Numbered from the stretch's first letter, positions 174 through 63,274 are shown. The stretch: 64,000 nt of DNA from an uncultured Gemmatimonadaceae bacterium (GCA_963781585.1 CAWAGQ010000001.1:1-64000); one strand, 5' to 3'. Made by a program: numbers and translations. The notes: generated by a model from the sequence alone, not told the origin.

Positions 174-3100
174 GTGCACCCGCGACCGCGCTCCCCTCAT
201 CCCGATCCGACGTCCCTCGTGCTCCGTCGGCATTCGTTCCAGCGCGGCTCCCTTTTGCACCACCTCCCCTCACTCCCGTCTGCTCCCGTGAAGACCCGAC
301 GAATCGTTCGGTGGTTGTCCCCCCTGTTCGCGTTGCTGTTCGCCGTACCCGCGGTCGCGCAGCAGACTGACATCATTCGCGGCCGCGTGGTTGGACCCGA
401 CAGCCTGCCGCTCGAGGCCGTCGCCGTGACGGCCACCTCCATCTCGGGTGGGGTGAATCGGACCGCGCGCACGGACCGCAATGGGCGTTTCACCATCTCG
501 TTCCCCGGGGGAGAGGGCGATTACATCGTCAGCTTCGTGAAGATGGGATTCGCGCCGAAACGCTTCGAGGTGAAACGCACGGCCGATCAGGAAATCCTGG
601 TGGCCGACACCCGGATGTCTTCGGCTGCGCAACAGCTCGGTGAAGTGAAGGTCACAGGAGAACGCGGCCGGGTGAACCGGAACGACAACCCGCCCGACAT
701 CAGCGGCACCGACCGACCGGTGAACGTCTCGGCCCTGACTGCGGATCAGCAGGGCGACCTGGCGGCGATGGCGGCCTCGATCCCGGGCGTGCAACTCATC
801 CCCGGCGCCGACGGCGACCCATCGGGCTTTTCGGTCCTGGGTCTGTCTCCCGACCAGAACAACACGACGCTCAACGGCATGAACTTCGGCGGGTCGAATC
901 TTCCGCGCGACGCGGCCATCACCAGCTCGCTGGTCACCACGCCGTACGACGTGTCGCGCGGCGGCTTCAGCGGCGGCCAGTTCAACATCCGCAGCCGCGC
1001 CGGCACCAACTACATCGTCCGTTCCATGAGCTTCAACGGCGATCTGCCGCAACTGCAGTGGACCGATCCGGCGGCGCGGGCGCTGGGCTCCCAATTCTCG
1101 AACCTCTCGCTGGGCGGAGGCATCGCGGGGCCGCTCAAGTACGACAAGGCGTTCTACAACCTCTCGTACCAGATCGGGCGCCGGTCGAGCGACCTGCAGA
1201 CGCTGCTCAACACGGGAGCGCTCGGCCTGCAGACGGCCGGCATCGCCCCCGACTCGGTCAGCCGGCTGCTGAACATCGTCGGACAGACCCACATCCCGCT
1301 GTCCGTGGGCGCGGTGCCGAGCAGCCGGCTGAGCGATCAGGGATCGGTGTTTGGCGCGTTCGACCTGGCTCCGCCGTCGTCCACGACCGGCCAGGCGTTC
1401 AACCTCACGTTCAACGGCAGCTGGAACAAGCAGTCTCCCGTGTCGGCCCTCACCGGCGAGCTGCCGTCGCACGGCGGCGATCGGACCAGCTGGAGCGGAG
1501 GCGTGCAGGCGCGGCACACCAATTTCTACGGGATCTTTCTCAGCGAGACCTCGCTGGGCGTGAGCGGTTCGCACAACTACGGCACGCCGTATCTGTCGCT
1601 CCCCAGCGCGAGCGTCCGGATCAACTCCACGTTCGACGACGGCACGAACGGCGTCCGGAATATCGGATTCGGCGGGAATCCCTCGCTCGGCACCAGTCAG
1701 ACGAACCTGACCGGGAACTTCATCAACACCCTCTCCTGGTTCAGCCTCGACAACAAGCATCGGCTGAAGCTGACCACCGAGCTGCGGCGCGATTCCTACA
1801 CGCAGGATCAGACGACCAACCGGCTCGGCACGTTCAGCTTCAACTCACTGTCCGATCTCGAGGCGAATGTTCCCGCATCCTACACGCGTCAGCTCTCGCC
1901 CCGCGTGCGCCGCGGAAGCCAGGTGGTCGGCGGGATGTCGCTGGGCGATTCGTGGAAGCCGACCAGCAACCTGCAGCTGCAGTACGGCGTGCGCCTGGAC
2001 GCGAATCGCTTCGGCAATGCGCCCACTCTCAATCCCGACGTCGAGCGGCTGTTCGGCGTGAGGAACGACCACGTTCCGAACCAGCTGTCGCTGAGTCCGC
2101 GCGCGGGATTCTCGTGGACCTACGGCGCGGCGCCGCAGATCGGGGCGTTCGTCGGGGCGGTGCGTGGGCCGCGGGCGGTCGTCCGCGGGGGCATCGGCCT
2201 GTTCCAGAACACCCCCGGCACGACGCTGATCGGCGGGGCGATCGACAATACGGGTTTGCCGGGGGCCGTCCAGCAGCTCAACTGCGTGGGCGCCGCCGCT
2301 CCGGCTCCCGACTGGACCGCCTACGCCACCGATCCGTCCGCGATTCCGTCCACCTGTGCCGACGGGTCCACCGGCACGGTGTTCGCCAACTCGGCGCCTA
2401 ACGTGTCACTGTTCGCCAGGGACTACCGGTCCCAACGGAGCCTGCGGTCCAATCTGCAGTGGAACGGTCCGATTCTCGGTAACCGGTTTTCGGCGACCGT
2501 AGAGGGAACGTATTCGCTGAACATGCACCAGTCGGGATTCGTCGACCTGAACTTCAACCCGGTGCCGCGCTTCCAGCTCGCCGACGAGGGCGGACGCCCG
2601 GTCTACGTGCAGCCCACCAGCATCGTGCCCACCACCGGGGCCATCGCCTCGGGGGACGCGCGCGTCTCGTCGCTCTTTTCGCGGGTCACCGAGCAGCGAT
2701 CCGATCTCAAGGGCTACAGCCGCCAGATCAGCGTGCGCCTCTCGCCGGCCACCTTCAGCACCGGCTGGACGTGGGGGCTGTCGTACGTCTACTCCGATGT
2801 GCGCGATCAGGTGCGCGGGTTCAGCAGCACCACCGGGAATCCGTTCGACGCCCAGTGGGGACGCTCGGGATTCAGCGCCCGCCACCAGTTCACCTACAAC
2901 CTGGGCTACAACCTGTTCGACCTGATGCGCGTGAACTGGTCCGGCCGGATCTCGTCGGGGAGCGCCTTCACGCCCGGCATCGCCGGCGACGTGAACGGTG
3001 ACGGCTACGCGAATGACCGGGCGTTCATCTTCGATCCCGCCCACACCGCCGACGCCGAGCTGGCGGCCCAGATGCGCTCCCTGATCTCGTCCTCGTCAGG

Positions 3101-4022: not shown

Positions 4023-4070
4023 GCCAAGGGCCAGAGGCAAAGCTCAAAGGCCAAACGCCAAAGGCCAAAT
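4023..4070 (+). repeat. Degenerate heptamer tandem array (GGCCAAA type)
   Basis: ggccaag ggccaga ggcaaag ctcaaa ggccaaa cgccaaa ggccaaa directly after the stop codon. Confidence 0.75.
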
Positions 4071-5568: not shown

Positions 5569-5666
5569 CGCTCGGGAGGCGCCCGCCGCCTAACGCTTCA
5601 ATCGCGCGCACGGGGCGTTGCGGGCGACAGGGCCAGTGTTGCCCGCCCACGCCCGTGCGCGGACCG

Positions 5667-14215: not shown

Positions 14216-15106
14216 TCAGCGTCCCTTGTCGTTAGGCGACACTCGGTCGTGGACCGGACCGGTCGCGGTGCGGCGACGCGCGCGCCGGTACGCCGCCGGC
14301 GTGGCGCCGGTCATCCGCCTGAACGCCCGGGTGAGGTGCGCCTGGTCGGCAAACCCCGCTTCGGCGGCGATCAGCGAGATCGAGTCGTCGGACGCGACCA
14401 GTCGGTCGGCGGCCCAGTCGACGCGCAGGCGCCTCACGTATGTCGCCACCGGGACGCGATGAACCCGACGGAAGACGGCCGCGAGATGCGCCGGGTGCAC
14501 TCCGGCTGCCGACGCGAGGTCGGCGATCCGAATGCCACGCCGGTAATGCTCGTGCGCATACTCGACAGCGCGGTCGAGCCACCCCGGCGCGGCGCCGCAC
14601 CCCGCGGTCGGCGCGGCCTCCAGGCGGGCCGCTTCCGCCACCAGCTCGAGGCCCAGACCCTCGACCGCCAGCGCAGTCAGGTCGTCGGGCCACAGGAGCT
14701 CACGCGCCAGTCGCCGCGCCGCCGCCGCGACCGGCGCATCGCGAAAGTGGCTGATGCGTTCGAAGAGCGCCGTGCATCGGGTCGGCCACGCTTCCCGCTG
14801 GAGATCGGGCTGGATGACAACCACGCGTGCTCCAGCGGCGGCAAAGCGGTTGGCGTGCTTTTCACACGCGGGCTCGGTGATGATCGTGCCGGGCCGGCAT
14901 TCGAACGTGCGGCGTCGGATCGCGGCACTGCTGAAGACGAGATCGAAACCTCCCTCCAGCATCACGGCGACCGTTGGGCGCTCGTGCACGTGCGCTTCGA
15001 GGAACGCGCCCGGCGGGAACCACGCGTGCGTGACCTGAAGGCTCGTGACGTCTCGCGTCACGAAACCTTCGCTGCCCATGGTGATGGGGACCGGAAGCGG
15101 CGGCAT
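14216..15106 (-). CDS. AraC family transcriptional regulator
   Basis: Cupin HVHE sensor; C-terminal LASAAGVHPAHLAAVFRR...IAAEAGFADQAHLTRAFRRMTGATP. Confidence 0.93.
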   Translation of the reverse strand: MPPLPVPITMGSEGFVTRDVTSLQVTHAWFPPGAFLEAHVHERPTVAVMLEGGFDLVFSSAAIRRRTFECRPGTIITEPACEKHANRFAAAGARVVVIQPDLQREAWPTRCTALFERISHFRDAPVAAAARRLARELLWPDDLTALAVEGLGLELVAEAARLEAAPTAGCGAAPGWLDRAVEYAHEHYRRGIRIADLASAAGVHPAHLAAVFRRVHRVPVATYVRRLRVDWAADRLVASDDSISLIAAEAGFADQAHLTRAFRRMTGATPAAYRRARRRTATGPVHDRVSPNDKGR

Positions 15107-19726: not shown

Positions 19727-22384
19727 ATGGGATTGCTCAGGGGTCTGATTGTCCGGCTGCGCGCCCTGGTGCGACGGCGCCGCGCCGACCACGAACTGGA
19801 CGACGAAATCGCGTTTCACCTCGAACAGGAGGTCGCGAAACTCCGCCGCACGGGGCTGGCCGAGGCCGAAGCGCGCCGCAAGGCGCTGGCGTTGTTCGGC
19901 GGCGTGACGCAGACGCGTGAAGCGCATCGCGACGTGCGGGGTGCATCGGGGATCGACGCGCTGCGAGGCGACGTCCGCTTCGCGTTTCGCGTCATTCGCC
20001 GGTCCCCGGCGCTCAGCGTCGCCGCGATCCTCACCATTGGCATCGCCATAGGCGCCAACACGGCCATCTTCTCCGCGGTGAACGCCGTGATCATCCAGCC
20101 GCTGCCATTCCCCGCGGCCAATCGCCTGTACATGCTGTGGGAGTCCAATCCGGAGCGAGGGTGGCGCCTGGCCCAGGTGGCGCCGGCCAACATGCTGGAT
20201 TGGAGCGAGCAGGTCGCGGCATTTTCCGGCGTCGCCGGCTACTCGGAATTCGACCACGGGACGCTCACCGGCGAGGGCGAGCCGGTGATTCTGCAGGGCA
20301 ACGCGGTCACCGGCAATTTCTTTTCCGTGCTCGGCGTACGACCGCTGCTCGGCCGGGGATTCCGCGACGATGAGACCTGGACGAACGGGACCCCGGTGAT
20401 GGTGCTCAGCCATCGCCTCTGGCAGGAGCGCTTCCGGGGCGACAGCGCCGTGGTCGGCCGCTCCGTCATGCTCGACGGCCGTCTCACCCGGATTGTGGGT
20501 GTGATGCCCCGGTCCTTCGTGTTTCCAAACGAGAAGGTCCTGTTCTGGCAGCCGATGGAATGGCTGCCCGCAAATCGCGCGCAGGTGTTCTTCCGGCGCG
20601 CGCACTGGATCCGTGCGGTGGCGCGGCTCCGTACCGGCGCCACGGAAGCCGAAGCGGGTGCACAACTGCAGACGGTCGTGCGGCGTCTGCAGCAGCAGTA
20701 TCCTGAGACCAATCGTCTGATGGGCGCGGGGATGACGCCGCTGCACGCGTTTCTCGTTGGAGACACGAAGCTCGCGTTGGTGGTGCTCCTCGGCGCGGTC
20801 ACGCTGCTTCTCCTGATCGCCTGCGCCAATGTGGGCAACCTGCTGCTGGTGAAGGCCACCGAACGAAGGCGGGAGGCCGCGCTGCGGCTCGCCCTGGGCG
20901 CGAGGCCGTCGCGACTCGTCAGGCAGGCGCTCACCGAGTCGCTGGTGGTGTCGATGCTGGGAGGCGTGGCCGGGATTCTGCTCGGCTTGGCCGGCACGCG
21001 GGCGCTGGTGGCCCTGCTGCCTGACGGCTTGCTCCCGGTGTCGCGGATCGGCGCGGACGCCCGCGTGCTCGGGTACGTGTTCGCGATCACCACCGCCTGC
21101 GGTCTGGTGTTCGGCATCGCCCCCGCGCTGTGGACCCGCCGTCGACTGCCCGCCGAAGCGCTCAAGGAAGGCGGCCGCTCCGACACCGGGGGCCGCCGCG
21201 CCAGACGCCTGACCGAGACCCTGGTGGTGGTCGAGGTGTGTCTGGCACTCACGCTGACGATAGGGGCCGGTCTGCTGACGCGCAGTCTGCTGCGGCTGCA
21301 GCAGGTGAATCCCGGATTCGAGCCGCGCAACGTGCTCGCCACCACGATTACGCTGTCCGGTTCACGGTACGACTCGGTGGCCCAGTTGGTGCGCGCCTTT
21401 GACGGGATCCTCCACGATGCCCGGGGCCTTCCCGGCGCGCAGGACGCGGCCGCGATTACGGCCCTGCCGCTGACGGCCCCGGCGTGGTCGAGCGACTTCC
21501 ACATCCTGGGTCATCCGCCGGACGATTTCGGTACCGAGGTGGTGCATCGCGAAACGGTCGGAGACTACTTCCGTGTCATGCGCGTGCCGGTCATCGAAGG
21601 GCGCACGTTCACGCCGGATGACGACCAGCGGCGGCAGCCCCGGGTGGCGATCATCAACGACGTGCTCGCCCGGAAGTTCTTCCATGGACAGGATCCGATC
21701 GGCCAGCAGCTGGTGTTCGACCGGGTGCCCGATTCCACGTCGGTGTGGCGGACGATCGTGGGCGTGGTGGGCAGCGAGCACCAGGGCGGCCTCGGGAGCG
21801 ACGCGCGGATCGAGATCTTCACGCCGATGGTCCAGGAGCCGCGAGCGAGGATGTCGATTCTGGTGCGCACCACCACCGATCCCACGGCCATCGAGCCGGC
21901 GATGCGGCGGTTGATTGCCGAGCAGGATCCGGACCTCCCGGTCGAGTCGATGCGGACCATGACCGCGGTCCGCGCGGAGTCGATGGGCCGCGAGCGATTC
22001 CTGACCACGCTGCTGCTGGGGTTCGCCGGCGTCGGGATGGTGCTGGCGGTGATCGGGGTGTACGGGGTCGTCGCCCAGCTGGCGCGGCGCCGTACGCGCG
22101 AGATCGGCATCCGGATCGCGTTAGGCGCTGATGCGGGGCACGTGCGCTGGCTGGTGGTGCGGCACGGACTGACGCTGCTGGCGTACGGTGTGGGCGCCGG
22201 CACGCTGGTAGCCTGGTTGTCGGCCAGGGTGATGCGCAGCCTGCTGTTCGGTGTCACGCCGGCCGATCCGCTCACGTTCATCACCGTGCCGGTGGTCCTG
22301 GCGCTGACGGTCGTGGCGGCGACGTGGCTTCCCGCGGCCCAGGCGTCGCGGCTGGCGCCGGCGGCGACGCTGCGGGAGGAGTGA
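19727..22384 (+). CDS. Duplicated orphan ABC permease (ADOP type)
   Basis: ELDDEIAFHLE prefix, IGANTAIFSAVN, LLIACANVGNLLL, RTREIGIRIALGA. Confidence 0.93.
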   Translation: MGLLRGLIVRLRALVRRRRADHELDDEIAFHLEQEVAKLRRTGLAEAEARRKALALFGGVTQTREAHRDVRGASGIDALRGDVRFAFRVIRRSPALSVAAILTIGIAIGANTAIFSAVNAVIIQPLPFPAANRLYMLWESNPERGWRLAQVAPANMLDWSEQVAAFSGVAGYSEFDHGTLTGEGEPVILQGNAVTGNFFSVLGVRPLLGRGFRDDETWTNGTPVMVLSHRLWQERFRGDSAVVGRSVMLDGRLTRIVGVMPRSFVFPNEKVLFWQPMEWLPANRAQVFFRRAHWIRAVARLRTGATEAEAGAQLQTVVRRLQQQYPETNRLMGAGMTPLHAFLVGDTKLALVVLLGAVTLLLLIACANVGNLLLVKATERRREAALRLALGARPSRLVRQALTESLVVSMLGGVAGILLGLAGTRALVALLPDGLLPVSRIGADARVLGYVFAITTACGLVFGIAPALWTRRRLPAEALKEGGRSDTGGRRARRLTETLVVVEVCLALTLTIGAGLLTRSLLRLQQVNPGFEPRNVLATTITLSGSRYDSVAQLVRAFDGILHDARGLPGAQDAAAITALPLTAPAWSSDFHILGHPPDDFGTEVVHRETVGDYFRVMRVPVIEGRTFTPDDDQRRQPRVAIINDVLARKFFHGQDPIGQQLVFDRVPDSTSVWRTIVGVVGSEHQGGLGSDARIEIFTPMVQEPRARMSILVRTTTDPTAIEPAMRRLIAEQDPDLPVESMRTMTAVRAESMGRERFLTTLLLGFAGVGMVLAVIGVYGVVAQLARRRTREIGIRIALGADAGHVRWLVVRHGLTLLAYGVGAGTLVAWLSARVMRSLLFGVTPADPLTFITVPVVLALTVVAATWLPAAQASRLAPAATLREE

Positions 22385-25089
22385 GGGCAGTGTGGCGCCG
22401 CCTGCAGGCACGGGTGCGCTCCCTCCTGAGGGGACAGGCCGCCGACCGCGACCTCGACGACGAGATCGCGTTCCACATCGAGCGCGAGGCGGACAAGTAC
22501 ATCGTTGCGGGATTCGATCCGGACGAGGCCCGGCGCCACGCCCTGGCGGCGTTCGGCGGCGTCCAGCAGGCGCGCGAGGCACACCGGGCGGTGCGCGGAG
22601 CGCCCCGGCTGCAGGATGCATGGCGCGACGTGCGGTACGCGCTGCGCGGCCTGGCTCGCAGTCCGCTTTTTGCCGGCACCGCGGTGTTGACACTGTCGAT
22701 CGGAATCGCCGCCACGACCGTCGTGGTGAGCGCGGTGCGGGCGCTGGTCTTTCCGGTGATGCCGGTGACCCGCGCCGACCGGCTGTACAACGTGTGGCAG
22801 GTGGAGGGAACCGCGGGGACGCCCAGCACGTCGATGGGACTCGCGACCTATCCGGACGGCTACGTCGCCACCCTTCGGAATGCATCGCGGAACGTCTTCG
22901 ACGACGTGGCCGGATACGCGTACAACGGCGTGTCGCTCCGGGTCGGGAACGATGTACGGCCGCTGAGCGGCGTGATCGTCACGCCCAACTACTTCGCGGT
23001 GCTCGGTATCCGGCCGGCCCTGGGCAGATTTCTCTCGTTCAGCCAGGCGCGGCCCGACCTTGGACAGCCCGAGGCGGTGCTGGCCTACGATCTCTGGCAG
23101 GCTGCGTTCGGCGGCGATTCGGCGATTATTGGCCGCACCATCCATGTCGACAGCCGGCCGCTCACCGTGACGGGCATCGCGCCGAAGGGCTTTCGTGGGC
23201 TGTTCATCGGGATCATCGGCGAGATCTGGATCTCGTCGACCGCCTATGACGGCCCGCCCCCGGCCGTGACCGACTCGGCGCTTCGCGCGCGACACGATGG
23301 CGTGAACATGACGGTCTTCGGTCGCCTGCGGGATGGCCTGACGGTGTCGCAGGCGCAGACGATGCTCGGCGTCGTGGCGTCGGATCCGTATCCCGGGCGG
23401 AGCTACTCGACGGCACCCACCTGGAGAGTTCGTCTCGACCCCGTGGCGGCGCTGCCGCGCATGGGCAAGGCCGAGGCGGCGGGCTTCACCGCCATGCTCG
23501 CAAGCGTCGCGGCCCTGGTACTCGCGATCGTGGCGACGAACGTCGCCGGCATGCTGCTCGCTCGCGCCACCGCGCGGCGGCGCGAGGTGGCAATCCGGCT
23601 CGCCATCGGAGCCGGGCGTGGTCGTATCGTCAGGCAGCTGATGATCGACAGTCTGGTCCTGTGCCTGGCAGGCGCGGCCGGCGGCGTCCTGATGGCGCGC
23701 GCGCTCGTCAGACTCGTTCCGGCTGTGCAGGCTCCAGTGTCCGCGCGCCTGGGGCTCGAGCTGCCGATGGACCGGGTGGTGCTGGGCATCGCGGTCCTTG
23801 CCTCGGTCGCCACCGGCCTCTTTGCCGGCTTCGCACCTGCATTGCAGGCGACGCGGTTCGACGTGATCAGTGCTCTCCGGGGAGGCGCTGAACAGGCGGG
23901 GCGCCCGGGGCGCCTGCGCACCCTGCTGGTGGTGACGCAGTTCTCGATGTCGCTGGCGCTCCTGGCAACTGCGGGACTGTTCATGCGCGCCCTCCAGCGG
24001 GCGCTGGCGACCGATCCGGGATTCGACCCGACGAACGTGGTGGTTGGTCGGGTCGACCTGGCGCCCCACGGGTACACGGGGTCCCGCGGCCGCGCGTTCT
24101 ACTCCGCGCTCGAGACGCGCCTGCGTGCGCGGCCCGAAGTGCGGTCGGTGGGGCTCGGGATCTGGACACCCCTCAGCGCCGGGCTGAATGGCAGCGGAGT
24201 CCTCCTGCCGGGGGAGGCGTGGCCGAACGGGCATCGGGTGGGCGTGCGCTACGGGGTGGCCGACTCGGGCTACTTCGCGACCCTGCGCATTCCCGTGCTC
24301 ACCGGTCGATGGTTCTCGGCGGCGGACGTGGCCGGCGCGGCGCCGTCGCTGATCGTCAACCAGGCCCTGGCGACTGCCTTCTGGCCTAACGAGTCGCCGC
24401 TCGGCAGGTCGATCGACGTGGAAACGGGCGGCAACCCGAATTTCCCGCGGCCCAGGGAGGTCGTCGGTCTGGTTCGCACCGCGAAGGTGCAAAGCCTGGC
24501 CGAATCCGCGGTGCCCTACGCCTACCTGCCGCTGGGGCAGCGCTACTCATCGGCGCTGCTCGTGTACGCGCGGGCGAGCGGTGCTTCCGACGCGGCGCTC
24601 GGCGCCCTGCGCGCCGTGGTCCGGGAGCTCGATCCCAACATCGCCGTCCAGCAGGCGATGCCGCTCACCGAGCAGCTCGACGTGTACGTCCTTCCGCAGC
24701 GGATCGCGGCGTGGTTCGTCGGCGCGCTGGGATTGGCCGGGCTCGGCCTCGCCGCCCTGGGAGTCTACGGGATGGTGGCGTACCACGTCGCGCAGCGGAC
24801 GCGCGAATTCGGGATCCGGCTGGCGCTTGGCGCGCGTGGCCGGGACGTGGTCGGTCTGGCGCAGCGTCACGCGCTCGGGCTGGCGGCCATCGGGTCGGTG
24901 GCGGGCGTTGCGCTCGCACTCGGGATCGCCCGTCTCGTGGCGGGCTTCCTGTACGGAATTCGCCCGTTCGACGTGCTCACCTTCACGGGTGTGTGCGCGC
25001 TGCTGGCCGGGACGGCGTTCCTCGCCAGTTGGCTTCCCGCGCGCCGCGCGGCCCACGTGGATCCGATGGAGTCGCTGCGGGTGGAGTGA
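22381..25089 (+). CDS. Second duplicated orphan ABC permease, coupled by GTGA overlap
   Basis: DLDDEIAFHIE prefix, NVAGMLLARATARRREVAIRLAIGA, RTREFGIRLALGA, PARRAAHVDPMESLR. Confidence 0.92.
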   Translation: MRAVWRRLQARVRSLLRGQAADRDLDDEIAFHIEREADKYIVAGFDPDEARRHALAAFGGVQQAREAHRAVRGAPRLQDAWRDVRYALRGLARSPLFAGTAVLTLSIGIAATTVVVSAVRALVFPVMPVTRADRLYNVWQVEGTAGTPSTSMGLATYPDGYVATLRNASRNVFDDVAGYAYNGVSLRVGNDVRPLSGVIVTPNYFAVLGIRPALGRFLSFSQARPDLGQPEAVLAYDLWQAAFGGDSAIIGRTIHVDSRPLTVTGIAPKGFRGLFIGIIGEIWISSTAYDGPPPAVTDSALRARHDGVNMTVFGRLRDGLTVSQAQTMLGVVASDPYPGRSYSTAPTWRVRLDPVAALPRMGKAEAAGFTAMLASVAALVLAIVATNVAGMLLARATARRREVAIRLAIGAGRGRIVRQLMIDSLVLCLAGAAGGVLMARALVRLVPAVQAPVSARLGLELPMDRVVLGIAVLASVATGLFAGFAPALQATRFDVISALRGGAEQAGRPGRLRTLLVVTQFSMSLALLATAGLFMRALQRALATDPGFDPTNVVVGRVDLAPHGYTGSRGRAFYSALETRLRARPEVRSVGLGIWTPLSAGLNGSGVLLPGEAWPNGHRVGVRYGVADSGYFATLRIPVLTGRWFSAADVAGAAPSLIVNQALATAFWPNESPLGRSIDVETGGNPNFPRPREVVGLVRTAKVQSLAESAVPYAYLPLGQRYSSALLVYARASGASDAALGALRAVVRELDPNIAVQQAMPLTEQLDVYVLPQRIAAWFVGALGLAGLGLAALGVYGMVAYHVAQRTREFGIRLALGARGRDVVGLAQRHALGLAAIGSVAGVALALGIARLVAGFLYGIRPFDVLTFTGVCALLAGTAFLASWLPARRAAHVDPMESLRVE

Positions 25090-46459: not shown

Positions 46460-48136
46460 TCAGGGGAGCCCGTACGACACCGGTGGCACCGACGCGCCGT
46501 GGCACCCTCTCGCCGGCCGCGGGGGCACGCGCAGATTGGCCACGGGCTGCACACCGGCCGAGTCGGCGGCAGAGCCGTCTGTCAGATCGTAGAGCCAGGC
46601 ACCGACAGATCCGTCGTCGAGTTGCATGTCATGGTTCGCGCGCTCCACGTGGTAGAGCTCGTGCCCGATCTGGTTGGCACGGTGGAGGATGATTGCTGGG
46701 TCGTTGAGCCGTCCCGCGGGGACGAAGACGATCCACACGCGGCGATGCCCATGCAGCAGATCGAGCTCGCGACCATACATATCGAGGTCGCGGGCGTGAC
46801 AGGTACCGAGCAAGGTCGGAAAACCGGCGAGGCCGGCGCGCGGGCCGTACCGCGTCCAGACGTGCCAGCTGCTGTAGGGCACGTAGAACACGTCGCCCGC
46901 CCGCGCGCGCTGGGCGACCGCTTCGAACACCGGTCGCACATCCTGGACGTAGTAGGGTGGGCGATGAATCACCAGCCAGCCTAACGAGGGCAGGGCGGCG
47001 AGCGATGCGACCGCCGTCGCGCGCCACAGGCGCTCCTGCCCGAACGTCAGCTGAATCCCTGCCGCAATGCCAGCCGCGAGAAGAAGGGCGAGCTGCGGCG
47101 CCAGGAAGACGCTCAGCCGGCCCCCGAAGGGATACTGCCGGAACGCCGCGGCCAGCAGCGCGATCGCCAGCGGACCGAGCAGGAGCATCACCGAGCGCCG
47201 GTCGCGACGCCAGAGCTGCACCGCGCCCAGCGCGGCCACAAAGACGCACACGCGACCGATCGGGGCGTTCATCAGCCCGTCAAACTCGACGCGGATCATG
47301 TAGAACGGCCAGCGCAAGTCGGCGACGGACGTGGGCGGAATGGTCGGGAAACTGGCGCGCCAGGTGTTACTCAGGAATGCCAATGTGTCCGGTGCGACGT
47401 GGGCGCGCGCAAACAGGACTGACGCGACGGCAGAGGCCGCCCAGGTTGCGACAATCGTCAGGAGCCGCGCGCGCTCGTTGCCGCGCACGTGGACGGAGTC
47501 GAGTAGCAACACTGCGCCCGCGGCCGCGAGCACGAACACCGCGGGTAGCGAGAACCAGGGCGCCGCGACACCGCACACCGCAAGGGCGACCCGCGCCCGG
47601 GTGCTCCGCGCCCGCGGAATGAGCACGGCCAGCAGCGTGACGCCCGCCGAAATGGCGAGATCTCCCGCGTACTGCTTCCCTTGGGCGGCCCACCAGATGG
47701 TGCGCGCCGAGAGCCCGAGCAGCAGAACGGGAAGAAACGCCAGGCTCGGCGCGAAATACGTCCGGGCCAGTCGTGCCGTGAAGATGAGGCCGGCGATCGT
47801 CATGGCGAGCGCGTAGGCGCGCAGCGCCAACTCGGCGGGACCGAACATCGCCACGGCGAGTTTCTCGATGGCGAGGAATCCGGGTGGGGCTACCTGATCG
47901 AAGTCCAGGGGACGGTGCAGCAGCCCGCCCAGCGATCGGTCGACCACGTTCCGGGCGATCGCCATTTCGTCCACCCAGAGCGACGGATCGGAGAAGTACT
48001 GCCAGGCCGCCAGGGCGATCCCGATCAGGACCGCAACGACCAGGAGCCGATTCCCGTCGACCCACGAGCCGGACTGTTCCCGTTCGGCGGGAGCGGTCAC
48101 CCCGTTCACGGGCGACACATTGCCTTCGACCTGCAC
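46460..48136 (-). CDS. Polytopic membrane GT-C type (GT39/ArnT-like) glycosyltransferase
   Basis: SLWVDE acidic motif after TM1, QVAPPGF, ELALR, KQYAGD, YPFGGRL; many TMs. Confidence 0.7.
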   Translation of the reverse strand: MQVEGNVSPVNGVTAPAEREQSGSWVDGNRLLVVAVLIGIALAAWQYFSDPSLWVDEMAIARNVVDRSLGGLLHRPLDFDQVAPPGFLAIEKLAVAMFGPAELALRAYALAMTIAGLIFTARLARTYFAPSLAFLPVLLLGLSARTIWWAAQGKQYAGDLAISAGVTLLAVLIPRARSTRARVALAVCGVAAPWFSLPAVFVLAAAGAVLLLDSVHVRGNERARLLTIVATWAASAVASVLFARAHVAPDTLAFLSNTWRASFPTIPPTSVADLRWPFYMIRVEFDGLMNAPIGRVCVFVAALGAVQLWRRDRRSVMLLLGPLAIALLAAAFRQYPFGGRLSVFLAPQLALLLAAGIAAGIQLTFGQERLWRATAVASLAALPSLGWLVIHRPPYYVQDVRPVFEAVAQRARAGDVFYVPYSSWHVWTRYGPRAGLAGFPTLLGTCHARDLDMYGRELDLLHGHRRVWIVFVPAGRLNDPAIILHRANQIGHELYHVERANHDMQLDDGSVGAWLYDLTDGSAADSAGVQPVANLRVPPRPARGCHGASVPPVSYGLP

Positions 48137-50636: not shown

Positions 50637-53294
50637 ATGAGGGACGAAGCCGCAGACCGCTCCACGTCCGCCGCCTCGCGGCTCGGTGAGGCGCTGGCCG
50701 GTCGCTACGCCATCGAGCGCGAGCTGGGCGAAGGCGGGATGGCGACGGTCTACCTGGCCCGCGACCTCAAGCACAACCGACACGTCGCGCTGAAGGTGCT
50801 CAAGCCGGAGCTGGCAGCGGTGCTGGGTTCGGAGCGCTTCCTCGCCGAGATCCAGGTGACGGCGAACCTGCGGCATCCGCACCTTCTGCCGCTGTTCGAT
50901 TCGGGCGAGGCCGGAGGGCTGCTCTTCTACGTGATGCCATACGTGGAGGGCGAGAGCCTCCGCGCGCGGCTCGACCGCGAGAAGCAGCTGCCGGTGGACG
51001 CGGCGGTGAAGATCGCGGTCGCAATCGCCGGGGCGCTCGACTACGCCCACCGGAACGGCGTGATCCATCGTGACCTCAAGCCGGCCAATATCCTGCTCGA
51101 GGACGGGGAGCCGGTGCTGGCGGACTTCGGCATCGCGCTGGCGATCTCGAACGCCGGCGGCGAGCGGGTCACCCAGACCGGACTCTCGTTAGGCACGCCG
51201 CAGTACATGAGCCCCGAGCAGGCGACCGGCGACCGGGTCATCGACGGCCGGTCGGATCTCTATTCGCTGACCGCGGTGCTGTACGAGATGCTGGTGGGCG
51301 ACGCCCCGCACATCGGCAGCACGGCGCAGACGATCATCGCCAAGGTGATCTCCGAGCGGCCCACCAGCGTGCGGGTGTTGCGACCAGCGGTGCCGCCGGC
51401 GCTGGCGGCCGTGATCGAGCGGGGGCTGGAGAAGCTTCCGGCCGATCGCTGGGCCACCGCGCACGAATTCGCCGACGCGCTCAAGGCGGCGGCCGCGCTC
51501 CAGACCGGAGCCATCGCGAGCGCCCCGGCGCTGTCGTCACCTCGCCGCCGCCAGACGAACTGGATTCCGTGGGCGGTCGTGGCCGCGGTCATTGTCGCCG
51601 CCGTGCTCTGGAACCGGTTTTCCTCTCGCGGCGGCGAACCGCGGAGCGCGGTGCGCTTCCCGCTCACCCTGGCCCCCAACGAACGCATCGCCACCACCAT
51701 GGGAAGCACGGTGACGATCTCGCCCGACGGCAGGTTGATTGCGTACAGCGGCGTGGGGAGCGACGGACTGCAGCGGCTGTTCGTGCGCACGCTCAGCGAG
51801 ATCCGCGCGCGTCCGGTCCCCGGGACGGAGGACGCCGAGCGTCCGTTTTTTTCGCCCGACGGCCGGTGGATCGGTTTCTTCGCGCGGGGTCAGCTGGGCA
51901 AGGTCCCCGTGAGCGGCGGGGCGCCGGTAGCGATGCCGTCCCTCCGCCTCATGAACGGCGCAAGCTGGGGTCCGAACGATATGATCGTCGTCTCGACCGC
52001 CGATCACCTCAGCGTGCTGTCCGCCAATGGCGGGGCGCCGCGCCAGCTCACCCAGCTCGATTCCGCCGCCGGGGAGACGAGCCAGCGGTGGCCTCGCGTG
52101 CTCGACGACGGCAAGACCATCCTGTACACGAGCTGGCGCACGAATCTCGCCGACGCCCGCATCGCCGTCGCCTCGATTGAGGGAGGCCCGACGACGATCC
52201 TGGACCTCCCGGGAACCTTCCCGTTAGGCGTGCTCGACGGCCAGCTGGTGTACGCCAGCGCCACCGGCGCGCTGATGGCGGTCCCGTTCGATACCCGCCG
52301 GATGCGCCCGAGCGGTGCGCCGGTCGTGGTCGGGGACGCGGTGGTGCTCGATTCCGACGGCGCCGCCAAGGCCGAGCTCTCCCCGAGCGGATCGCTCATC
52401 TACCAGATCGGTCGGGCCACCATGCAGATCGTCCTCGCCGACCGCAACGGCCAGAGCCGGACCGTGATCGCCGAGGCGCGGCGCTACGAGTTCCCGCGCT
52501 TCTCGCCCGACGGCAAGCGCGTGGCCTTGACCGTCACGACCGATACGTCTGCCGACGTGTGGATCGTCGACCTGGCCAGCGGAATCCGCACGCGGCTCAC
52601 CACCAGCGGGACCGCCAACGATCGTCCCGAATGGTCGGCCGACGGACAGCGCGTGCTCTACGATTCCAATCGCAGCGGGGCGTACGCCCTCTGGTGGCAG
52701 CCCGCCGACGGAACGGGCGCGCCGCAAGTACTGCTCGGCCTGCCCGGCACCGACATCCTGGAAGGCGTGGTGTCGCACGACGGCCGCTACCTTGTCTATC
52801 GGACCGGCCCCGGCGACATCTGGTATCGGCGGCTCGACGGCGACACGACGTCGCATCCGATCGCAGCGTCCGCCGGCGCGGAGTACGGGCCCCGCTTGTC
52901 GCCGGACGATCGCTGGGTGGCGTATTCATCGGACGAGTCCGGCGAACAGCAGGTGTACGTGCGACCATTTCCGTCGTTAGGTGCGCGGTACCAGGTTTCG
53001 GTGGACGGCGGCTCGGAGCCGGTCTGGTCGGCCGACGGCAAGCGATTGTACTATCGGCGCAACCGGCTGCTCAAGGCGGCGACGTTCACCACCACGCCGG
53101 CGTTCGCGGTGACCTCGCGCGAGGAGCTGTTCGAGGGCGACTTCATCTTCCAGGCGGTGCACGCCGAGTACGACGTGGCGCCCGACGGCGCGCACTTTCT
53201 GCTGCTCAAACTGGCCGGCTCGGACGTACAGACGATCGTGGTGCAGAACTGGATCGCCGAACTGCGTGCGCGGACTGCCGCGGGTCCGGGCTGA
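50637..53294 (+). CDS. Ser/Thr kinase with TM and PD40/TolB-like beta-propeller
   Basis: LGEGGMATVY, HRDLKPAN, DFG, GTPQYMSPEQ; ISPDG/FSPDG/WSADG repeats; VVQNW end. Confidence 0.95.
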   Translation: MRDEAADRSTSAASRLGEALAGRYAIERELGEGGMATVYLARDLKHNRHVALKVLKPELAAVLGSERFLAEIQVTANLRHPHLLPLFDSGEAGGLLFYVMPYVEGESLRARLDREKQLPVDAAVKIAVAIAGALDYAHRNGVIHRDLKPANILLEDGEPVLADFGIALAISNAGGERVTQTGLSLGTPQYMSPEQATGDRVIDGRSDLYSLTAVLYEMLVGDAPHIGSTAQTIIAKVISERPTSVRVLRPAVPPALAAVIERGLEKLPADRWATAHEFADALKAAAALQTGAIASAPALSSPRRRQTNWIPWAVVAAVIVAAVLWNRFSSRGGEPRSAVRFPLTLAPNERIATTMGSTVTISPDGRLIAYSGVGSDGLQRLFVRTLSEIRARPVPGTEDAERPFFSPDGRWIGFFARGQLGKVPVSGGAPVAMPSLRLMNGASWGPNDMIVVSTADHLSVLSANGGAPRQLTQLDSAAGETSQRWPRVLDDGKTILYTSWRTNLADARIAVASIEGGPTTILDLPGTFPLGVLDGQLVYASATGALMAVPFDTRRMRPSGAPVVVGDAVVLDSDGAAKAELSPSGSLIYQIGRATMQIVLADRNGQSRTVIAEARRYEFPRFSPDGKRVALTVTTDTSADVWIVDLASGIRTRLTTSGTANDRPEWSADGQRVLYDSNRSGAYALWWQPADGTGAPQVLLGLPGTDILEGVVSHDGRYLVYRTGPGDIWYRRLDGDTTSHPIAASAGAEYGPRLSPDDRWVAYSSDESGEQQVYVRPFPSLGARYQVSVDGGSEPVWSADGKRLYYRRNRLLKAATFTTTPAFAVTSREELFEGDFIFQAVHAEYDVAPDGAHFLLLKLAGSDVQTIVVQNWIAELRARTAAGPG

Positions 53295-53304: not shown

Positions 53305-56002
53305 TTACTCCGCTCGCAACGCCTCGGTCGGACTGATCTGCACCGCCCGCCGAGCGGGAAGCACGCCGGCCAGCAGCGCCACCACGAGCAGCGCGACCGC
53401 CACGCCGCCCAGCACGAGGGGATCGACGGCGCTGGTCTCGAACAGCCAGGGCTCGATCCAGTGCCCGCCGGCGATGACCAGCGCCAGACCTAATGCGACC
53501 CCCGTCGCCGCGAGGGACGTGCCGCTGGCCACCACCATGCGCACGATCTGAGCGTCAGTCGCGCCGATGGCGTGCCGGATCCCGATCTCGCGCGTGCGCC
53601 AGGCGACCATGCTGGACATCAGGCTGTAGAGCCCGAGCAGCGCCACAACGAGCGCCAGTCCGCTGCTCAGGCCGAAGGTCACCATGCCGAGGCGCAGCGG
53701 ATGCATCTCGCCGTCGAGGGACTCGCGCAGCCCCTTCACGTCGACCGAGCGGATCGAGGGATCGACGCGCAACATCGTCTGCTGCAGGGTCGACGACGAC
53801 ACCGGCGATGACCGCGTCGGCCTGACGAGTAGCGTGGCGCCGCCGAACAGATGCTGCTGCCCCAGTGGCATGTAGTACTGGAGCGACGGCTTGTCGCGCA
53901 GCCCTACGCGGTGCACGTCCTCCACCACCCCGACCACGCGGGCGCACGGCGCGGTCCTGAGCCCGATGCCCGCGCACTGTCCGATCGCGTCGCCGTTCGG
54001 CCAGAGCGAGCGCGCCATCGTCTCGCCGACAATGAGGACCGGCTCCGTTCCCTCGCGATCCTGCGCGGTGAACACCCGGCCGCGCAGCAGACGGGTGCCG
54101 ATGGTCGCGAAGTAATCCGGTCCCACGGTGCTGGCGAACGGCCCGCCTCCCGGCAGCGTGGGAATCGAGTCGCGCCCCGATATCCACACGGTCGCCGAGA
54201 ACGTCCCGCCGTCGAGGGGCAGGCCGATCGCAATCGCAGCGCGCTCGACGCCCGGCAGGTGGCGCACGGCATCGACCAGCCGCCGATACACGTCACGCTC
54301 GTTGTCGAGGTACCGGACAATCGCAGCCGAGGTATATGTCGTCCAGGGCGGCAGCTGGGCGTTCGCGGTGAGCACGCGGTCCCGGTCCACGCCGAGGTGG
54401 AGCGCGCCCACGCGCTCCAGACTGCGCAGGAAGAGCCCCGCGCACACCAGCAGCACCACCGAGAACGATGCCTGCACGAGGGTGAGTGCCGCGCGCGTGC
54501 GCGTACTTCCGGCGCCACCCGCCTGCGTCCCGGCGCGCAGCATCGCGACGAGTCGCGGATTGACTCCCTGCACAGCGGGGACAATGCCGATGCATAGCGC
54601 CGTCGCGCCCACGAGCAGCACCGCGGCAATGAGCAACCTGGCGTCGAGGAGCGAGAAGCTCCAGGTCGCGTCGCCGGCGAACAGCGCGTGCTGCACCAGT
54701 GGCGCCGTGATCTGCACCACCCACAGGCCCACGGCCCCTCCGGCGACCGCGAGGAATGCACCTTCGAACGCGAACAGCCGCACCAGACGCCCCCGGCCCG
54801 AGCCGAGGGCGATGCGGACCGCCAGCTCGCGCCGGCGCCGCGCGAGGCGCACCAGCAACAGGTTCACCACGTTGGCGAGCGCGATCAGCAGGATCACCAG
54901 CGACACGCCGGCCAGCCAGCGCGCCATCGTCGCCTCGAACGGCTCGCGACCCGTGTCGTCATACCGGATGGGAGCCGCTCGGAGCGCAGCTTCGCGGTAC
55001 CACTTCGGCGCGGCGTCGCTCGTGCGTCGGAACACGGCGGCTGCCTCCGCGCTCGCCGCGCCAAGGGTGACGCCGGGGCGCAGGCGGCCGAGGATGTTCC
55101 AGTTCGTCGTACCGGCTCGGCGCGAATCGGCGAGCGTCCAGACGTCGACGCGCCGCAGCTCGGTGCCCGAGAAGTCGTCAGGCAGGACGCCCACCACGGT
55201 AGAATGCGCGTCGCCGACGTCGATGGTCCGTCCCAGTACGTCAGGGTCGCCGCCGAACTGCCGGCGCCACACGGTCTCGCTGATCACTGCCAGCGGTCCG
55301 GCGCTCGCCGCGTCGTCGTCGGCCGAGAAGAGGCGTCCGAGGAGCGGCTGGGCGCCGAGCAAGGGGAAGAATGCGCCCATCGTGGCGCCCGCGCGGAGCC
55401 GTCGCGCGGACGTGCCTCGACCCACCAGCTCGGGAACCACGCGGTACGCGGCCACGGTCTGGAAGCTCTGCATGCCATCACGCAGGGCGAGATACACGGG
55501 GTAAGGGATCCACGACGACGTGCGCTCGCCCGTGACCGGCTCCGTCACGGTGCCGTATATCCGTGCCAGGGTTCGACGGTTGCGTGATATGAGCGGGGTC
55601 CCGCAGCAGCAGGCGGTCCACGAGGTTGAACGCAGTCACGTTCGCCCCCACCGCCAGGCCTAACGTCAGTACGATGAAGAACGAGGGCAGGGGATCGCGC
55701 GCCAGACCACGGACCGCGTATCGTGCGTCCTGCAGGAGTGCCTCCCATCGCTCGCGCATGCGCATGACCTGGTTCCTCTCTCTGGCGGTGGAATAGAGTG
55801 CCCGCACTGTCCCGGCCTCCTGCGCGAAGAGCCGCAGCGCCTCGGCGCGCGCGGTGGCCTCGCTGGAGCCCTCGGACATGAGTTGCGCCGCGCGGAGCTC
55901 GACGTGGAGCCGCATCTCGTCATCGACGTCCCGCGCCGCGTCGCGCCAGCGGAAGTCGGTGAGTCGAAACAGCCGGCGGATGCCGGGTCTGAGCGGTGCC
56001 AT
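53305..56002 (-). pseudogene. Duplicated orphan ABC permease split by a +1 frameshift at about 55573
   Basis: N-part (DVDDEMRLHVE, LGLAVGANV...DPAHITQPS) joins the C-part (TLARIYGTVTEP...PARRAVQISPTEALRAE) if one base is removed. Confidence 0.88.
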
Positions 56003-61212: not shown

Positions 61213-61349
61213 CTCGCGACGGGTCTCGTGGCGGGGAGCCGAGAACTCCGGATTGCGAAGAAGCAGCTGCCGGCCGAGCTGACTGGCGAGAGCGGTCGTC
61301 AGCACGGAATGCTCCTCGCCGTGGTGTGTTGGCGGTCGGCTGCTGCATC

Positions 61350-61490: not shown

Positions 61491-61540
61491 GCGCGTGGGC
61501 GGTCGTGGGCGGTGATCACCCGATCGCCCGACCCCGACGC

Positions 61541-63274
61541 CTAACGACTATCGGGACGGGGTACCGCCCCTGTCGTGGTGCGCCGAAATACGTCGATGCG
61601 AGATGGTGGATCGACGATGGCTCGCGTCTCCGCCGCGCTGAATCCGGCCTTCGCGAGTGACGGCAGGAAAAACGGCAGCCGGTACGTCCCCGAGCTGTCC
61701 GCCGGCGTGATCGCTACCACGCTGACGAACCGCCCCGTCGTCAGGGCTTCGTCGAAGGCCCTCAACGCGTCGGCCGAATCCGCGCTCGAAGTCGGTCTGC
61801 CGAACGCGATCGACCGTGTGATCCCAGGTCGCTCGTATCGCGTAAGCGCGTCGACGAGGTCAGAGCGCACCGCGCCCGGCAGAGACCAGCGGGCCATGAC
61901 ACCGGCCAGCCGCCGCTCATGCGGCACGTCTACGATCTCGTTGATTGCCCCCGATTGCTCCGGCGACAGCAGCCTTTCGCGGCTCGCCAGGTACCAGTCG
62001 ATGCTCGGACCGGGGAATCGCCCGCCGGTCGTGGCGACGACCAACGTGGGCGCGCCCGCGCGTACCGCCGCCGCGATGATGACGAGCGACTCCGCCGCCC
62101 CCGCCGGCAACGCCTGTGTCGCGGCCTGACGGGCAATGGCGCGACCCTGCGCAACCACGATCGCGACGATCGACAACACCATCGCCGTGCGCGGGATGAT
62201 CGCGGCGCGACCCGATTTACCGCTGACCCAACGCCGCCAGCCCGCGGCGAGCACGCAACCCGCCAGCATGAACATCGCCGGAAGCAGCGGAAACAGGTGC
62301 CGCTCCACCTTCGTGTGGTGCACTTCACCAATGGCGAACTGGATCGCGATCACGAGCAGCAGCAGGCGCACATTCGGATCGCTTCGAAGCCGCCAGGCGC
62401 CGACTACGGCAGCAACCAGGAGCACGAAGACCGGGAAGGAGCCCGACAGGTGGACGAGGGCGCGCGGATAGTACAGGAGGCCCTCCGCGGTCCACGGCGA
62501 CGCCGTTCCGTAGCGCTGGTTGACCAGCATCGTCCAGGTCGCCCCCAGCTTGGGGAGGTATGCGAACCACACCGCGCTCGTCACGACCACCGGCACCAGC
62601 GCGTACCCATACTCCCGGCGGAACAGCCCCCGAAGGCGACCCCGGGCCTCGATGGCCGCGTCAACGGCGAACACGATCAGGAGCAGGATGCCATAGTTCG
62701 CCTTGAGAAAGTACGTGACCATGAGCATCGCGCCGAGGAGCCAGTACGCCGGCGGACGCGCGCCGCGTTGTCGCAGCGAAAATCGCACGTACAGCGTCGC
62801 GACGAAGGCGGCGAGCGCCGGGATTTCGAGCATGACGTTGGTGGCGAATCCCAGCAGCGGTGGTGAGGTGAGCGAGAGCACCGCTGCGATGAGCCCGCAC
62901 GCCTCGCCGTCCCGCGCCGCCACCGCGCGGCCGCCGCCCATCGCCCGCGCGGCGAGAAAGACCGCAACGACGAGAAGCACGAAGCCAACGAGACTCACCG
63001 AGCGCGCCGGCACCGTTCCCGGACCGACAGAGAGGAACGCGATCGCGGTCAGCCAGGAATGGAGGAACGGCCAGTACACCTGCTTGTAGCTGTCGAGCAG
63101 CACGGCCAGCCAGTCGCCGCTCCGGGCGTCGGAGGCGATCAACAGGCCGTGCAATGCGTGGGCGGACTGGTCCCAATCGAGTCCGCCGGCGGACTGGACC
63201 TGATACACGAAGAGCAGCCAGGCGGTGACCAGCGCGGCCAGCACAACACCCGGCAATGCGAGTCGTCGGCTCAC
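61541..63274 (-). CDS. Polytopic membrane GT-C type (GT39/PMT-like) glycosyltransferase
   Basis: LDWDQSAH after TM1, YWPFLHSW, VMLEIP, FLKANYG, ERHLFPLLP; many TMs. Confidence 0.7.
   Translation of the reverse strand: MSRRLALPGVVLAALVTAWLLFVYQVQSAGGLDWDQSAHALHGLLIASDARSGDWLAVLLDSYKQVYWPFLHSWLTAIAFLSVGPGTVPARSVSLVGFVLLVVAVFLAARAMGGGRAVAARDGEACGLIAAVLSLTSPPLLGFATNVMLEIPALAAFVATLYVRFSLRQRGARPPAYWLLGAMLMVTYFLKANYGILLLIVFAVDAAIEARGRLRGLFRREYGYALVPVVVTSAVWFAYLPKLGATWTMLVNQRYGTASPWTAEGLLYYPRALVHLSGSFPVFVLLVAAVVGAWRLRSDPNVRLLLLVIAIQFAIGEVHHTKVERHLFPLLPAMFMLAGCVLAAGWRRWVSGKSGRAAIIPRTAMVLSIVAIVVAQGRAIARQAATQALPAGAAESLVIIAAAVRAGAPTLVVATTGGRFPGPSIDWYLASRERLLSPEQSGAINEIVDVPHERRLAGVMARWSLPGAVRSDLVDALTRYERPGITRSIAFGRPTSSADSADALRAFDEALTTGRFVSVVAITPADSSGTYRLPFFLPSLAKAGFSAAETRAIVDPPSRIDVFRRTTTGAVPRPDSR

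Follow-up and report, generated by a model that had tools for sequence, protein, structure and literature searches.

A dispersed non-palindromic octamer of soil Gemmatimonadota recurs in Verrucomicrobiota and phages and contains the integron core site

Introduction

Self words of the uptake type are, to our knowledge, established in only two proteobacterial families. Within the Neisseriaceae, dialects of the DNA uptake sequence (DUS) replace one another, and the mobile elements of Neisseria are DUS-poor. Cyanobacteria carry HIP1 (highly iterated palindrome 1), a palindromic octamer that occurs about once per kilobase or few kilobases, lies within genes, runs against codon usage, is patchily distributed and has been linked to a methyltransferase. 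Here we analyze an octamer, CGTTAGGC (reverse complement GCCTAACG; hereafter the word), that is dispersed through a 64-kb stretch of DNA (the window, G000:C1:1-64000) from a soil member of the Gemmatimonadota. The source genome, G000, comprises 5.72 Mb in 17 contigs with 67% G+C. An earlier note on the window had proposed that the word is a lineage-specific, DUS-like signal, or the site of a nucleoid or segregation protein, and had not recognized it as described; we likewise found no printed description of it.

A literature search pairing Gemmatimonadota with uptake sequences found no paper. Searching for the word itself yielded primer noise, with nothing relevant among the matches listed, and nothing relevant was found that joins the integron core site to methylomes. 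Judged by titles and abstracts, papers pairing Verrucomicrobia with 'uptake sequence' do so only incidentally, and, on the same basis, the matches listed for attC together with 'uptake sequence' concern Neisseria, Haemophilus or Ssn. The accessible text of a 2025 preprint names only Neisseriaceae and Pasteurellaceae for uptake enhancing sequences (bioRxiv 10.1101/2025.10.24.684340).

The closest likeness is to the uptake signal sequence (USS) of Pasteurellaceae and the DUS of Neisseriaceae, which, in the portions of the literature available to us, share with the present word a short, exact, non-palindromic form and hundreds to thousands of copies on both strands (PMC1939737, bioRxiv 10.1101/2025.10.24.684340). 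The likeness extends to a mostly intragenic residence in tolerant frames, even spacing, sparseness in foreign DNA and the existence of clade dialects. The present word differs in belonging to other phyla, Gemmatimonadota and Verrucomicrobiota, and in being 8-9 nt long. With HIP1 it shares octamer density, intragenic position, opposition to codon usage and patchiness among lineages, but it differs from its own reverse complement, as the earlier note had pointed out, and its abundance is followed by none of the methyltransferases compared. The octamers Chi (RecBCD/AddAB) and KOPS (FtsK-orienting polar sequences) are similar in length, and the frequency in G000, about one copy per 4 kb, is comparable; in contrast to them, the word has no orientation bias once gene strand is considered, RecC was found in only 1 of 41 genomes, and its excess runs against codon usage instead of riding on common codons. 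The Ssn single-strand nucleases, according to the accessible part of their description, read NTS/SRM, intergenic hairpin repeats of ~30 nt that cluster around loci, and modulate transformation (PMC11893778). They offer a parallel in that a protein dedicated to one sequence reads a repeated word, and indicate that readers of this kind need not be uptake receptors, but the present word is 8 nt long, unstructured, intragenic and evenly spread. We rejected the Ssn/NTS system as an identification, since NTS/SRM are hairpin repeats and the G000 word has neither conserved flanks nor a hairpin.

Results

All 17 exact copies claimed for the window are there (10 CGTTAGGC, 7 GCCTAACG), whereas the count averaged 1.01 over 100 dinucleotide-preserving shuffles and peaked at 4, none reaching 17; the four one-mismatch copies singled out beforehand, at 6782, 39147, 40825 and 52975, are also present, among 62 such matches. 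Genome-wide the word occurs 1442 times (724 and 718 by strand), ~1 per 4 kb on each contig, against 89, 44 and 51 copies expected from Markov models of order 1, 2 and 3. When all octamers of G000 are ranked in this way the word comes first at orders 2 and 3, and the word and its reverse complement are the top two at order 1; a maximal-order ranking fails to single it out because its own 6- and 7-mers are co-enriched. Within genes, called by a crude procedure of our own (4038 genes, 61-89% of each contig covered), its frequency is about thirty times chance. Twenty synonymous-codon shuffles that left proteins and per-gene codon usage unchanged brought the 1085 copies in coding sequence down to 42.7 +/- 6.2 (largest 56), contrary to the first refuting outcome named in the earlier note, and 735 of the 1203 TTA codons in G000 genes (61%) fall within the word.

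The unit is the full 8-mer. CGTTAGG is followed by C in 1442 of 1706 occurrences (85%) and GTTAGGC is preceded by C in 1442 of 1591 (91%), so that the alternative raised at the outset, of other contexts being as frequent, does not hold. Apart from codon periodicity and a weak bias at -1, where the base is mixed, and at +8, the flanks of the 1442 sites show nothing; nor did 416 sites of G009, the relative richest in the word, reveal a conserved flank beyond these two positions. Since the flanks lack conserved sequence, the word is not a piece of a longer repeat. Three one-mismatch neighbors are enriched, CGTTAGGT (183 copies), TGTTAGGC (79) and CGTTATGC (180), while other synonymous neighbors are not, a pattern that looks more like relaxed recognition than plain decay.

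Three quarters of the copies (75%) lie inside called genes, and another 359 fall beyond the gene calls or at their margins. The dominant reading is xCG-TTA-GGC ([ASTP]-Leu-Gly, 735 copies), followed by the opposite-strand G-CCT-AAC-G (Pro-Asn, 263), xGC-CTA-ACG (60) and C-GTT-AGG-C (25). Expressed as a share of the peptide sites at which the word could be written, its use is 33% for antisense x-P-N-[VADEG] (265/802), 16% for sense [ASTP]-L-G (734/4571), 2.6% for antisense [CRSG]-L-T (60/2351) and 0.8% for sense x-V-R-[LPHQR] (25/3007). This share tracks codon cost and not strand, with the cheapest contexts being filled. The word is read in the sense direction in 70.2% of cases where the gene is on the leading strand and in 70.8% where it is on the lagging strand (Fisher p = 0.92), and copies outside genes divide about equally by strand, 87 to 77. 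Replication polarity of the Chi/KOPS type, which had been doubted from the window alone, is therefore rejected; an orientation switch on contig C4 tracks gene strand alone. As a separate observation, the E. coli Chi octamer itself, GCTGGTGG, occurs 1504 times in G000 against 267 expected at order 1 and falls outside the top 12 at orders 2-5; its excess is probably a codon-usage effect.

Comparison with the congener G001 (365 kb aligned, 87.2% identity) showed that 72 sites are common to the two genomes, out of 88 in the aligned part of G000 and 84 in that of G001, compared with 39.6% of all 8-nt windows. Where the peptide [ASTP]LG is conserved, the 8 nt are identical at 30 of 32 word-coded sites but at only 91 of 200 otherwise coded ones, and P-N sites show such identity at 13 of 15 against 7 of 12; over all third codon positions identity is 77.3%. 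The word is retained at silent sites between the two species. Together with the codon shuffle and the cost-dependent filling of contexts, this retention bears out the earlier note's view that the pressure acts on DNA and not on protein. Forty-three G000 sites align to word-poor G002, whose proteins are ~50% identical; the word is absent from all of them there and ordinary codons stand in its place, P-N sites remaining P-N where conserved. The word is also seen in MEGAHIT, SPAdes and long-read assemblies, the assembler being judged by contig names. The ordinary codons in G002 and the mixture of assemblers rule out a base-calling artefact.

Copies avoid one another at short range and are more even than random: in G000, 20 gaps are shorter than 200 bp where 71 are expected, and 68 are shorter than 500 bp where 172 are expected. 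A 333-kb sample of G009, with one copy per 0.8 kb, has 13 gaps below 100 bp against 48 expected. The word is sparse in atypical genes and DNA. Although it is AT-rich for the genome, its density rises seven-fold with G+C at third codon positions (GC3), from 0.06 per kb at GC3 0.70-0.78 to 0.41 per kb at 0.88-0.92, and the longest word-free stretches, 26-39 kb, have a lower G+C of 0.62-0.67.

Among relatives the distribution is patchy. Measured against the reversed word as control, 12 of 41 relatives show an excess (G000, G001, G005, G009, G014, G015, G020, G023, G024, G036, G038 and G040), up to 6360 copies in the 5.1 Mb of G009; G013 and G016 are intermediate and the remainder have 6-65 copies. 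An evenly sampled draw of 401 genomes from the phylum contained 17 clearly above control, comprising 13 of 94 in family f1 and 4 of 166 in f2, all of the latter in genus g82; none of 5 genomes of f3 and none of 136 in families f4-f12 showed an excess. These tallies count four genomes flagged as unpublished, G008 and, in the draw, also G086, G125 and G204, as ordinary word-poor rows, and no conclusion depends on any one of them. The supposition that the word is lineage-specific thus stands within this phylum. Contrasts can be sharp: in genus g51 the word occurs 3479-4141 times in G241, G298 and G402 but only 66 times in a fourth genome, G294. G294 holds no clear remnant of the word, its ratio of matches with at most one mismatch to control being 0.45, compared with 0.46 in G013, 0.28 in G002 and 0.34 in G011. 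The top octamers of a G002 sample (L105-L124), GTCATTCC, ATTCCGGC and ATTCCCGC, resemble the NTS/SRM hairpin repeats that Ssn nucleases read, as these appear in the accessible text (PMC11893778).

Profile searches for IntI, Vsr, ComEC, ComP_DUS and RecC, and the methyltransferase comparisons, covered the 41 genomes, and none of the candidate readers examined follows the word. Five genomes gave a Vsr match, one of the 12 word-rich and four of the 29 others, with none found in G001 or G009. The G000 Vsr is fused to a C5 (Dcm-type) DNA methylase and followed by an EcoRII-type restriction enzyme (G000:C7:477213-479892; L297:4214-6893), which looks like a complete CCWGG-type module, its specificity being taken from family names. 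RecC (PF04257) was not found in G000; AddAB was not searched. A correlation with methyltransferases had been suggested; G000 encodes several, and none of the three compared tracks the word. An Eco57I/MmeI-like protein of 1076 aa is conserved in 40 genomes, a TaqI_C-type methyltransferase occurs in three, one of them word-poor, and a second type IIG-like enzyme occurs in G000 only. When G000 was compared with 400 kb of the word-rich verrucomicrobial genome G426 (~a tenth of that genome) for genes of unusually high identity, only a few unannotated matches of 64-75% stood out.

The word extends to a second phylum. When a single genome of each species was scanned for pairs of copies separated by 450-480 bp, at least 122 stretches emerged, and the titles among the 80 matches listed are mostly those of Gemmatimonadales or Chthoniobacterales/Verrucomicrobiota bins. 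Copy numbers in three verrucomicrobial genomes are 2254, 3510 and 676, where the control gives 250-400, and the hyper-abundance of the form TCGTTAGGC in soil Verrucomicrobia was checked by direct counts. In 400 kb of one such genome the top words are TCGTTAGG (415 copies) and CGTTAGGC (390), and 84% of copies are preceded by T (position -1); Chthoniobacterales/Verrucomicrobia use the dialect TCGTTAGG(C). An Acidobacteriota bin has a different use of the same word, a dispersed repeat in which two same-strand copies 25 bp apart recur at least 7 times in 15 kb (L275; G427:C4:1247000-1262000).

Phage records from IMG/VR carry the word at 0.43-1.8 copies per kb, compared with 0.25 per kb in G000 (Table 1). 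G429 and G430 encode terminase and portal proteins and carry the word inside virion genes, and G432 encodes virion structural proteins; no integrase was found in G429 among 50 open reading frames (ORFs) by Pfam or 26 by PHROGs. The phages split into the two host dialects. The base at -1 is mixed in G429, G430, G432 and G433, as in Gemmatimonadota, and is T in 12 of 13 copies in the examined part of provirus G431 and in 8 of 8 in locus L378, as in Verrucomicrobia.

A connection to integrons was not foreseen in the earlier note. In the accessible text of their description, attC sites are defined by a core GTTRRRY and an inverse core RYYYAAC (PMC3053210). The word contains GTTAGGC, a GTTRRRY form, and its complement contains RYYYAAC; it therefore contains a canonical integron core site. 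It also ends attC sites in the arrays of word-poor relatives. Co-oriented copies spaced every 350-650 bp occur in genomes that have no genome-wide excess, namely Lysobacter, Luteimonas, Arenimonas, Rhizobacter, a Burkholderiaceae bin and word-poor Gemmatimonadales (G027 and G025 among them). Each copy is the 3′ end of an imperfect hairpin of 60-130 nt running from GCCTAAC to GTTAGGC, with the next ORF within a few bases. These arrays are integron cassette arrays, and some adjoin intI (G027:C80, G025:C26, G011:C168, G002:C133). In verrucomicrobial G424, attC-like hairpins found by the degenerate core pattern alone end in T.TCGTTAG (7 of 7 aligned, two of them duplicates), and this invariant end agrees with the T at -1 of the verrucomicrobial dialect.

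The G000 copies share with attC/attI sites the 8-mer that forms the 3′ end of attC hairpins beside intI in relatives, but they are single, intragenic, devoid of inverse core or hairpin and not arrayed, and their number does not go with the presence of intI. IntI scored above cut-off in 26 of 41 relatives, so the order is rich in integrons, and in all three word-rich Verrucomicrobia; by word content, these 26 comprise 8 of the 12 word-rich relatives and 18 of the remaining 29. G000 has one IntI (434.5 bits), and no attC array was found beside its gene; 7 hairpin-forming pairs occur genome-wide. IntI was not found by profile search in G005, G015 or G024, and in the richest genome, G009 (92% complete), the only match is split over three frames (G009:C182:835-1781), so the gene is broken. 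Word-poor G294, by contrast, has two or three copies, and the integron-rich Lysobacteraceae show no genome-wide excess of the word. IntI is 54-60% identical between phyla; the median identity of the 334 best tblastn matches of G000 proteins (at least 60% query cover) to a 400-kb piece of G426 is 34%. A separate observation concerns a 303-aa open frame partly similar to integron integrase, with three equal-score matches in G000 (C7:172407-173237, C7:183006-183836, C13:309021-309851), a counterpart in G001 and another adjoining intI of G014. It is probably a mobile element.

Discussion

The excess rests on the whole 8-mer and on both orientations, and a force acting on duplex DNA is therefore needed. 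Our tentative preference, drawn from the genomic likenesses described above, is that the word may be a genome-wide self word like the DNA uptake enhancing sequences USS and DUS. A putative sequence-specific reader of duplex DNA would favor the transmission of word-bearing DNA, most likely because competent cells would take it up preferentially before homologous recombination. Alleles with the word would spread by molecular drive against codon preference, and the spread would halt when drive balances translational cost, a second nearby copy yielding diminishing returns.

Several observations weigh against an uptake word in its plain form. The word lacks the AT-rich or other extended flanks of USS, and the inverted terminator pairs known for DUS are rare: of 1425 gaps between neighbors, 10 are shorter than 200 bp and join copies on opposite strands, both arrangements being counted. 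No ComP-type receptor was found: PF16732 scored above cut-off in one of the 41 genomes, word-poor G011, and the G000 match reached only E = 0.006. The DNA-import channel ComEC (PF03772) is present in 40 of the 41, G000 included, which is in keeping with uptake, but since word-poor genomes have it too it does not discriminate. Sister lineages lack any word instead of having another dialect; in a 387-kb sample of G002 no comparable word was detected, the top z being 11.9 where rich genomes reach 130-208. Two phyla have nearly the same word, which would not be expected from independent drift of uptake specificity, and phages, including G429 with no detected integrase, are as word-dense as their hosts, a further departure from USS and DUS. 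Of the earlier note's lineage-specific, DUS-like signal, then, the DNA-level, strand-symmetric and lineage-restricted character stands, while no ComP-type receptor was found, and the second phylum, the phages and the integron core site fit the plain version less well. Because the two phyla, the dialect-free sisters and the word-rich phages sit uneasily with a plain uptake word, two rivals, an intracellular self mark and an integron-linked reader, are kept alive.

It is possible, although we consider it somewhat unlikely, that a host factor reads the word inside the cell, on either strand, with selection acting on each copy. Such a factor could be a nuclease or helicase that spares DNA bearing the word or is modulated by it, or a nucleoid- or replication-associated binding protein, and phages would gain by copying the word. 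The mirroring of host dialects by phages, their densities above that of G000, the word-bearing terminase, portal and other virion genes of G429 and G430, and the failure to detect an integrase in G429 all point in this direction, and even short-range spacing and silent-site conservation fit per-site selection as well as they fit drive. Yet the replication polarity that a Chi-like signal needs is missing, RecC was found in a single relative, no candidate reader examined tracks the word, and temperate or transfected phages could gain the word under uptake too; in our judgement, an excess of this size running against codon usage is more typical of drive than of known families of binding sites. 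More doubtful is a direct link to integrons, in which a tyrosine recombinase of the IntI type, or a protein derived from one, would use the copies as half-sites (R boxes), or in which attC ends and the genomic word would share one reader, such as an uptake receptor, so that cassettes would be tagged for import. The core-site match (PMC3053210, accessible text), the near confinement of the word to attC hairpin ends in word-poor relatives, Lysobacteraceae and Burkholderiales, the arrays adjoining intI, the agreement of G424 attC-like ends with the clade dialect, the wide occurrence of IntI in both phyla and its identity across them, above the median of the best protein matches, favor this link. 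The match was noticed post hoc, however, and IntI does not track the word: it is broken in G009, not found in three word-rich relatives and multiplied in word-poor G294, while Lysobacteraceae are integron-rich without an excess. Genomic copies lack a paired inverse core, the few hairpin pairs of G000 form no array near intI, and the final C>T is the one GTTRRRY-compatible variant to be enriched. Moreover, insertion of cassettes into genomes requires only GWT in the accessible account (bioRxiv 10.1101/2022.09.11.507474), and this attG consensus therefore has no link to the full word. It is an equally uncertain suggestion that the word and the integron core site could be one signal, with a single reader, either an IntI-type recombinase module or an uptake receptor exploited by cassettes, serving both attC R box ends and thousands of single copies in certain Gemmatimonadota and Verrucomicrobia and their phages, the clade dialect matching the clade's own attC ends.

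A mutational origin appears improbable. In the manner proposed for HIP1, a methylase could mark the word and very-short-patch-type repair could convert near-cognates, and it is consistent with this that G000 encodes several DNA methyltransferases, that the end-position C>T variants CGTTAGGT and TGTTAGGC exceed the 15-42 copies expected, and that patchiness is typical of mobile modification genes. But Vsr was detected in only one word-rich genome of 12, with no match in G001 or G009, and in G000 it belongs to the Dcm fusion beside an EcoRII-type nuclease, a different system; the three methyltransferases tested do not follow the word; a single-position bias cannot lift the word and its T variants summed ~20-fold; and frame use follows codon cost and not mutational reach, the one-step synonymous change of CTG to CTA being filled at only 2.6%. 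That there is no signal at all, the word being a by-product of amino-acid and codon usage, a dispersed repeat or a sequencing or assembly error at a modified site, is scarcely credible. G000 is a genome bin with a contamination estimate of 7.19%, and many of the compared relatives are metagenome bins likewise; the codon shuffle, the unconserved flanks beyond codon periodicity, the occurrence across assemblers, and the sites common to two independent assemblies argue against such an origin, as do the ordinary codons at orthologous sites in G002 with P-N kept, which transition errors would not give.

Whichever reader is responsible, a word with an uptake-type genomic signature, dialects and phage mirroring exists in two abundant and poorly studied soil phyla. 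If the preferred reading as an uptake-type self word is correct, or if the word belongs to another genome-wide DNA-reading system, sequence-biased DNA exchange or such a system would shape much of the soil microbiome. That the word coincides with an integron core site provides a concrete, testable bridge among natural transformation, integrons and genome signatures; should the two prove to be one signal, cassettes would be genes tagged with their genomes' own 'take me up' or 'treat me as self' word. The contrast within genus g51 offers a direct route to the reader gene, and a practical use of the word is to flag contigs, phages and islands of these lineages.

Features of the Window and Other Loci

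The earlier note had described the copies as being read in different ways, and this proved accurate. By the crude gene calls, the 17 window copies (Table 1) comprise 10 read as x-Leu(TTA)-Gly, 4 read on the opposite strand as x-Pro(CCT)-Asn and 3 outside called genes; the copies that had been placed between genes at 5588 and over a TAG stop at 61539 are where they were said to be.

Table 1. Positions of word copies in the window, and cassette arrays and phage records that carry the word
Feature	Position or record	Strand	Context
Word copy	2396..2403	-	antisense in gene 315-4022 (+), A-P(CCT)-N-V
Word copy	5588..5595	-	between convergent genes 4210-5568 (+) and 5667-6512 (-); inside 25-nt direct duplication 5549-5597
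Word copy	14230..14237	+	antisense in gene 14216-15106 (-), S-P-N-D
Word copy	22119..22126	+	sense, GCG-TTA-GGC = A-L-G, gene 19727-22384 (+)
Word copy	24384..24391	-	antisense in gene 22390-25089 (+), W-P-N-E
Word copy	28012..28019	+	sense A-L-G, gene 25641-28277 (+)
Word copy	29633..29640	+	sense A-L-G, gene 28879-29928 (+)
Word copy	31530..31537	+	sense A-L-G, gene 30107-32428 (+)
Word copy	33942..33949	+	sense A-L-G, gene 33725-35068 (+)
Word copy	34261..34268	-	antisense, also in gene 33725-35068 (+), V-P-N-A
Word copy	35521..35528	+	sense A-L-G, gene 35175-35726 (+)
Word copy	37987..37994	+	sense A-L-G, gene 37305-38351 (+)
Word copy	46979..46986	-	sense S-L-G, gene 46460-48136 (-)
Word copy	51187..51194	+	sense S-L-G, gene 50637-53294 (+)
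Word copy	52222..52229	+	sense P-L-G, gene 50637-53294 (+)
Word copy	55658..55665	-	outside gene calls, between 53305-55548 (-) and 56009-56350 (-)
Word copy	61539..61546	-	overlaps TAG stop of gene 61541-63244 (-)
Cassette arrays, 5 to 23 co-oriented attC sites per locus	L267 (G027:C95:1-20000), L268 (G025:C3:1-9000), L269-L273 and L276 (Luteimonas, Arenimonas, Lysobacter), L274 (Burkholderiaceae bin)		several beside intI
Phage record, 44 kb	G429		29 copies, control 3; rated 98% complete
Phage record, 17 kb	G430		31 copies, control 1
Phage record, 46.5 kb	G431		20 copies, control 4; provirus
Phage record, 7.8 kb	G432		12 copies, control 1
Phage record, 8.8 kb	G433		8 copies, control 0

The 25-nt direct duplication between two convergent genes carries, in addition to the copy at 5588, a one-mismatch copy. 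Two 90%-identical copies of the 1076-aa Eco57I/MmeI-like protein are encoded in G000 (C2:157766-160996 and C6:144469-147699), and further near-identical pairs among the neighboring genes link C2_73-75 with C6_58-60; given the contamination estimate above, fragments of two related strains may be mixed in the bin. Short intergenic tandem arrays of 7-nt units lie in the window at 4021-4069, 25099-25178, 29977-30016 and 63467-63527, and their unit varies by locus (AGGCCAA, GCTATCG, TGACCGC); across G000, AGGCCAAA occurs 331 times against 28-58 expected, with 298 of the 331 copies outside gene calls.

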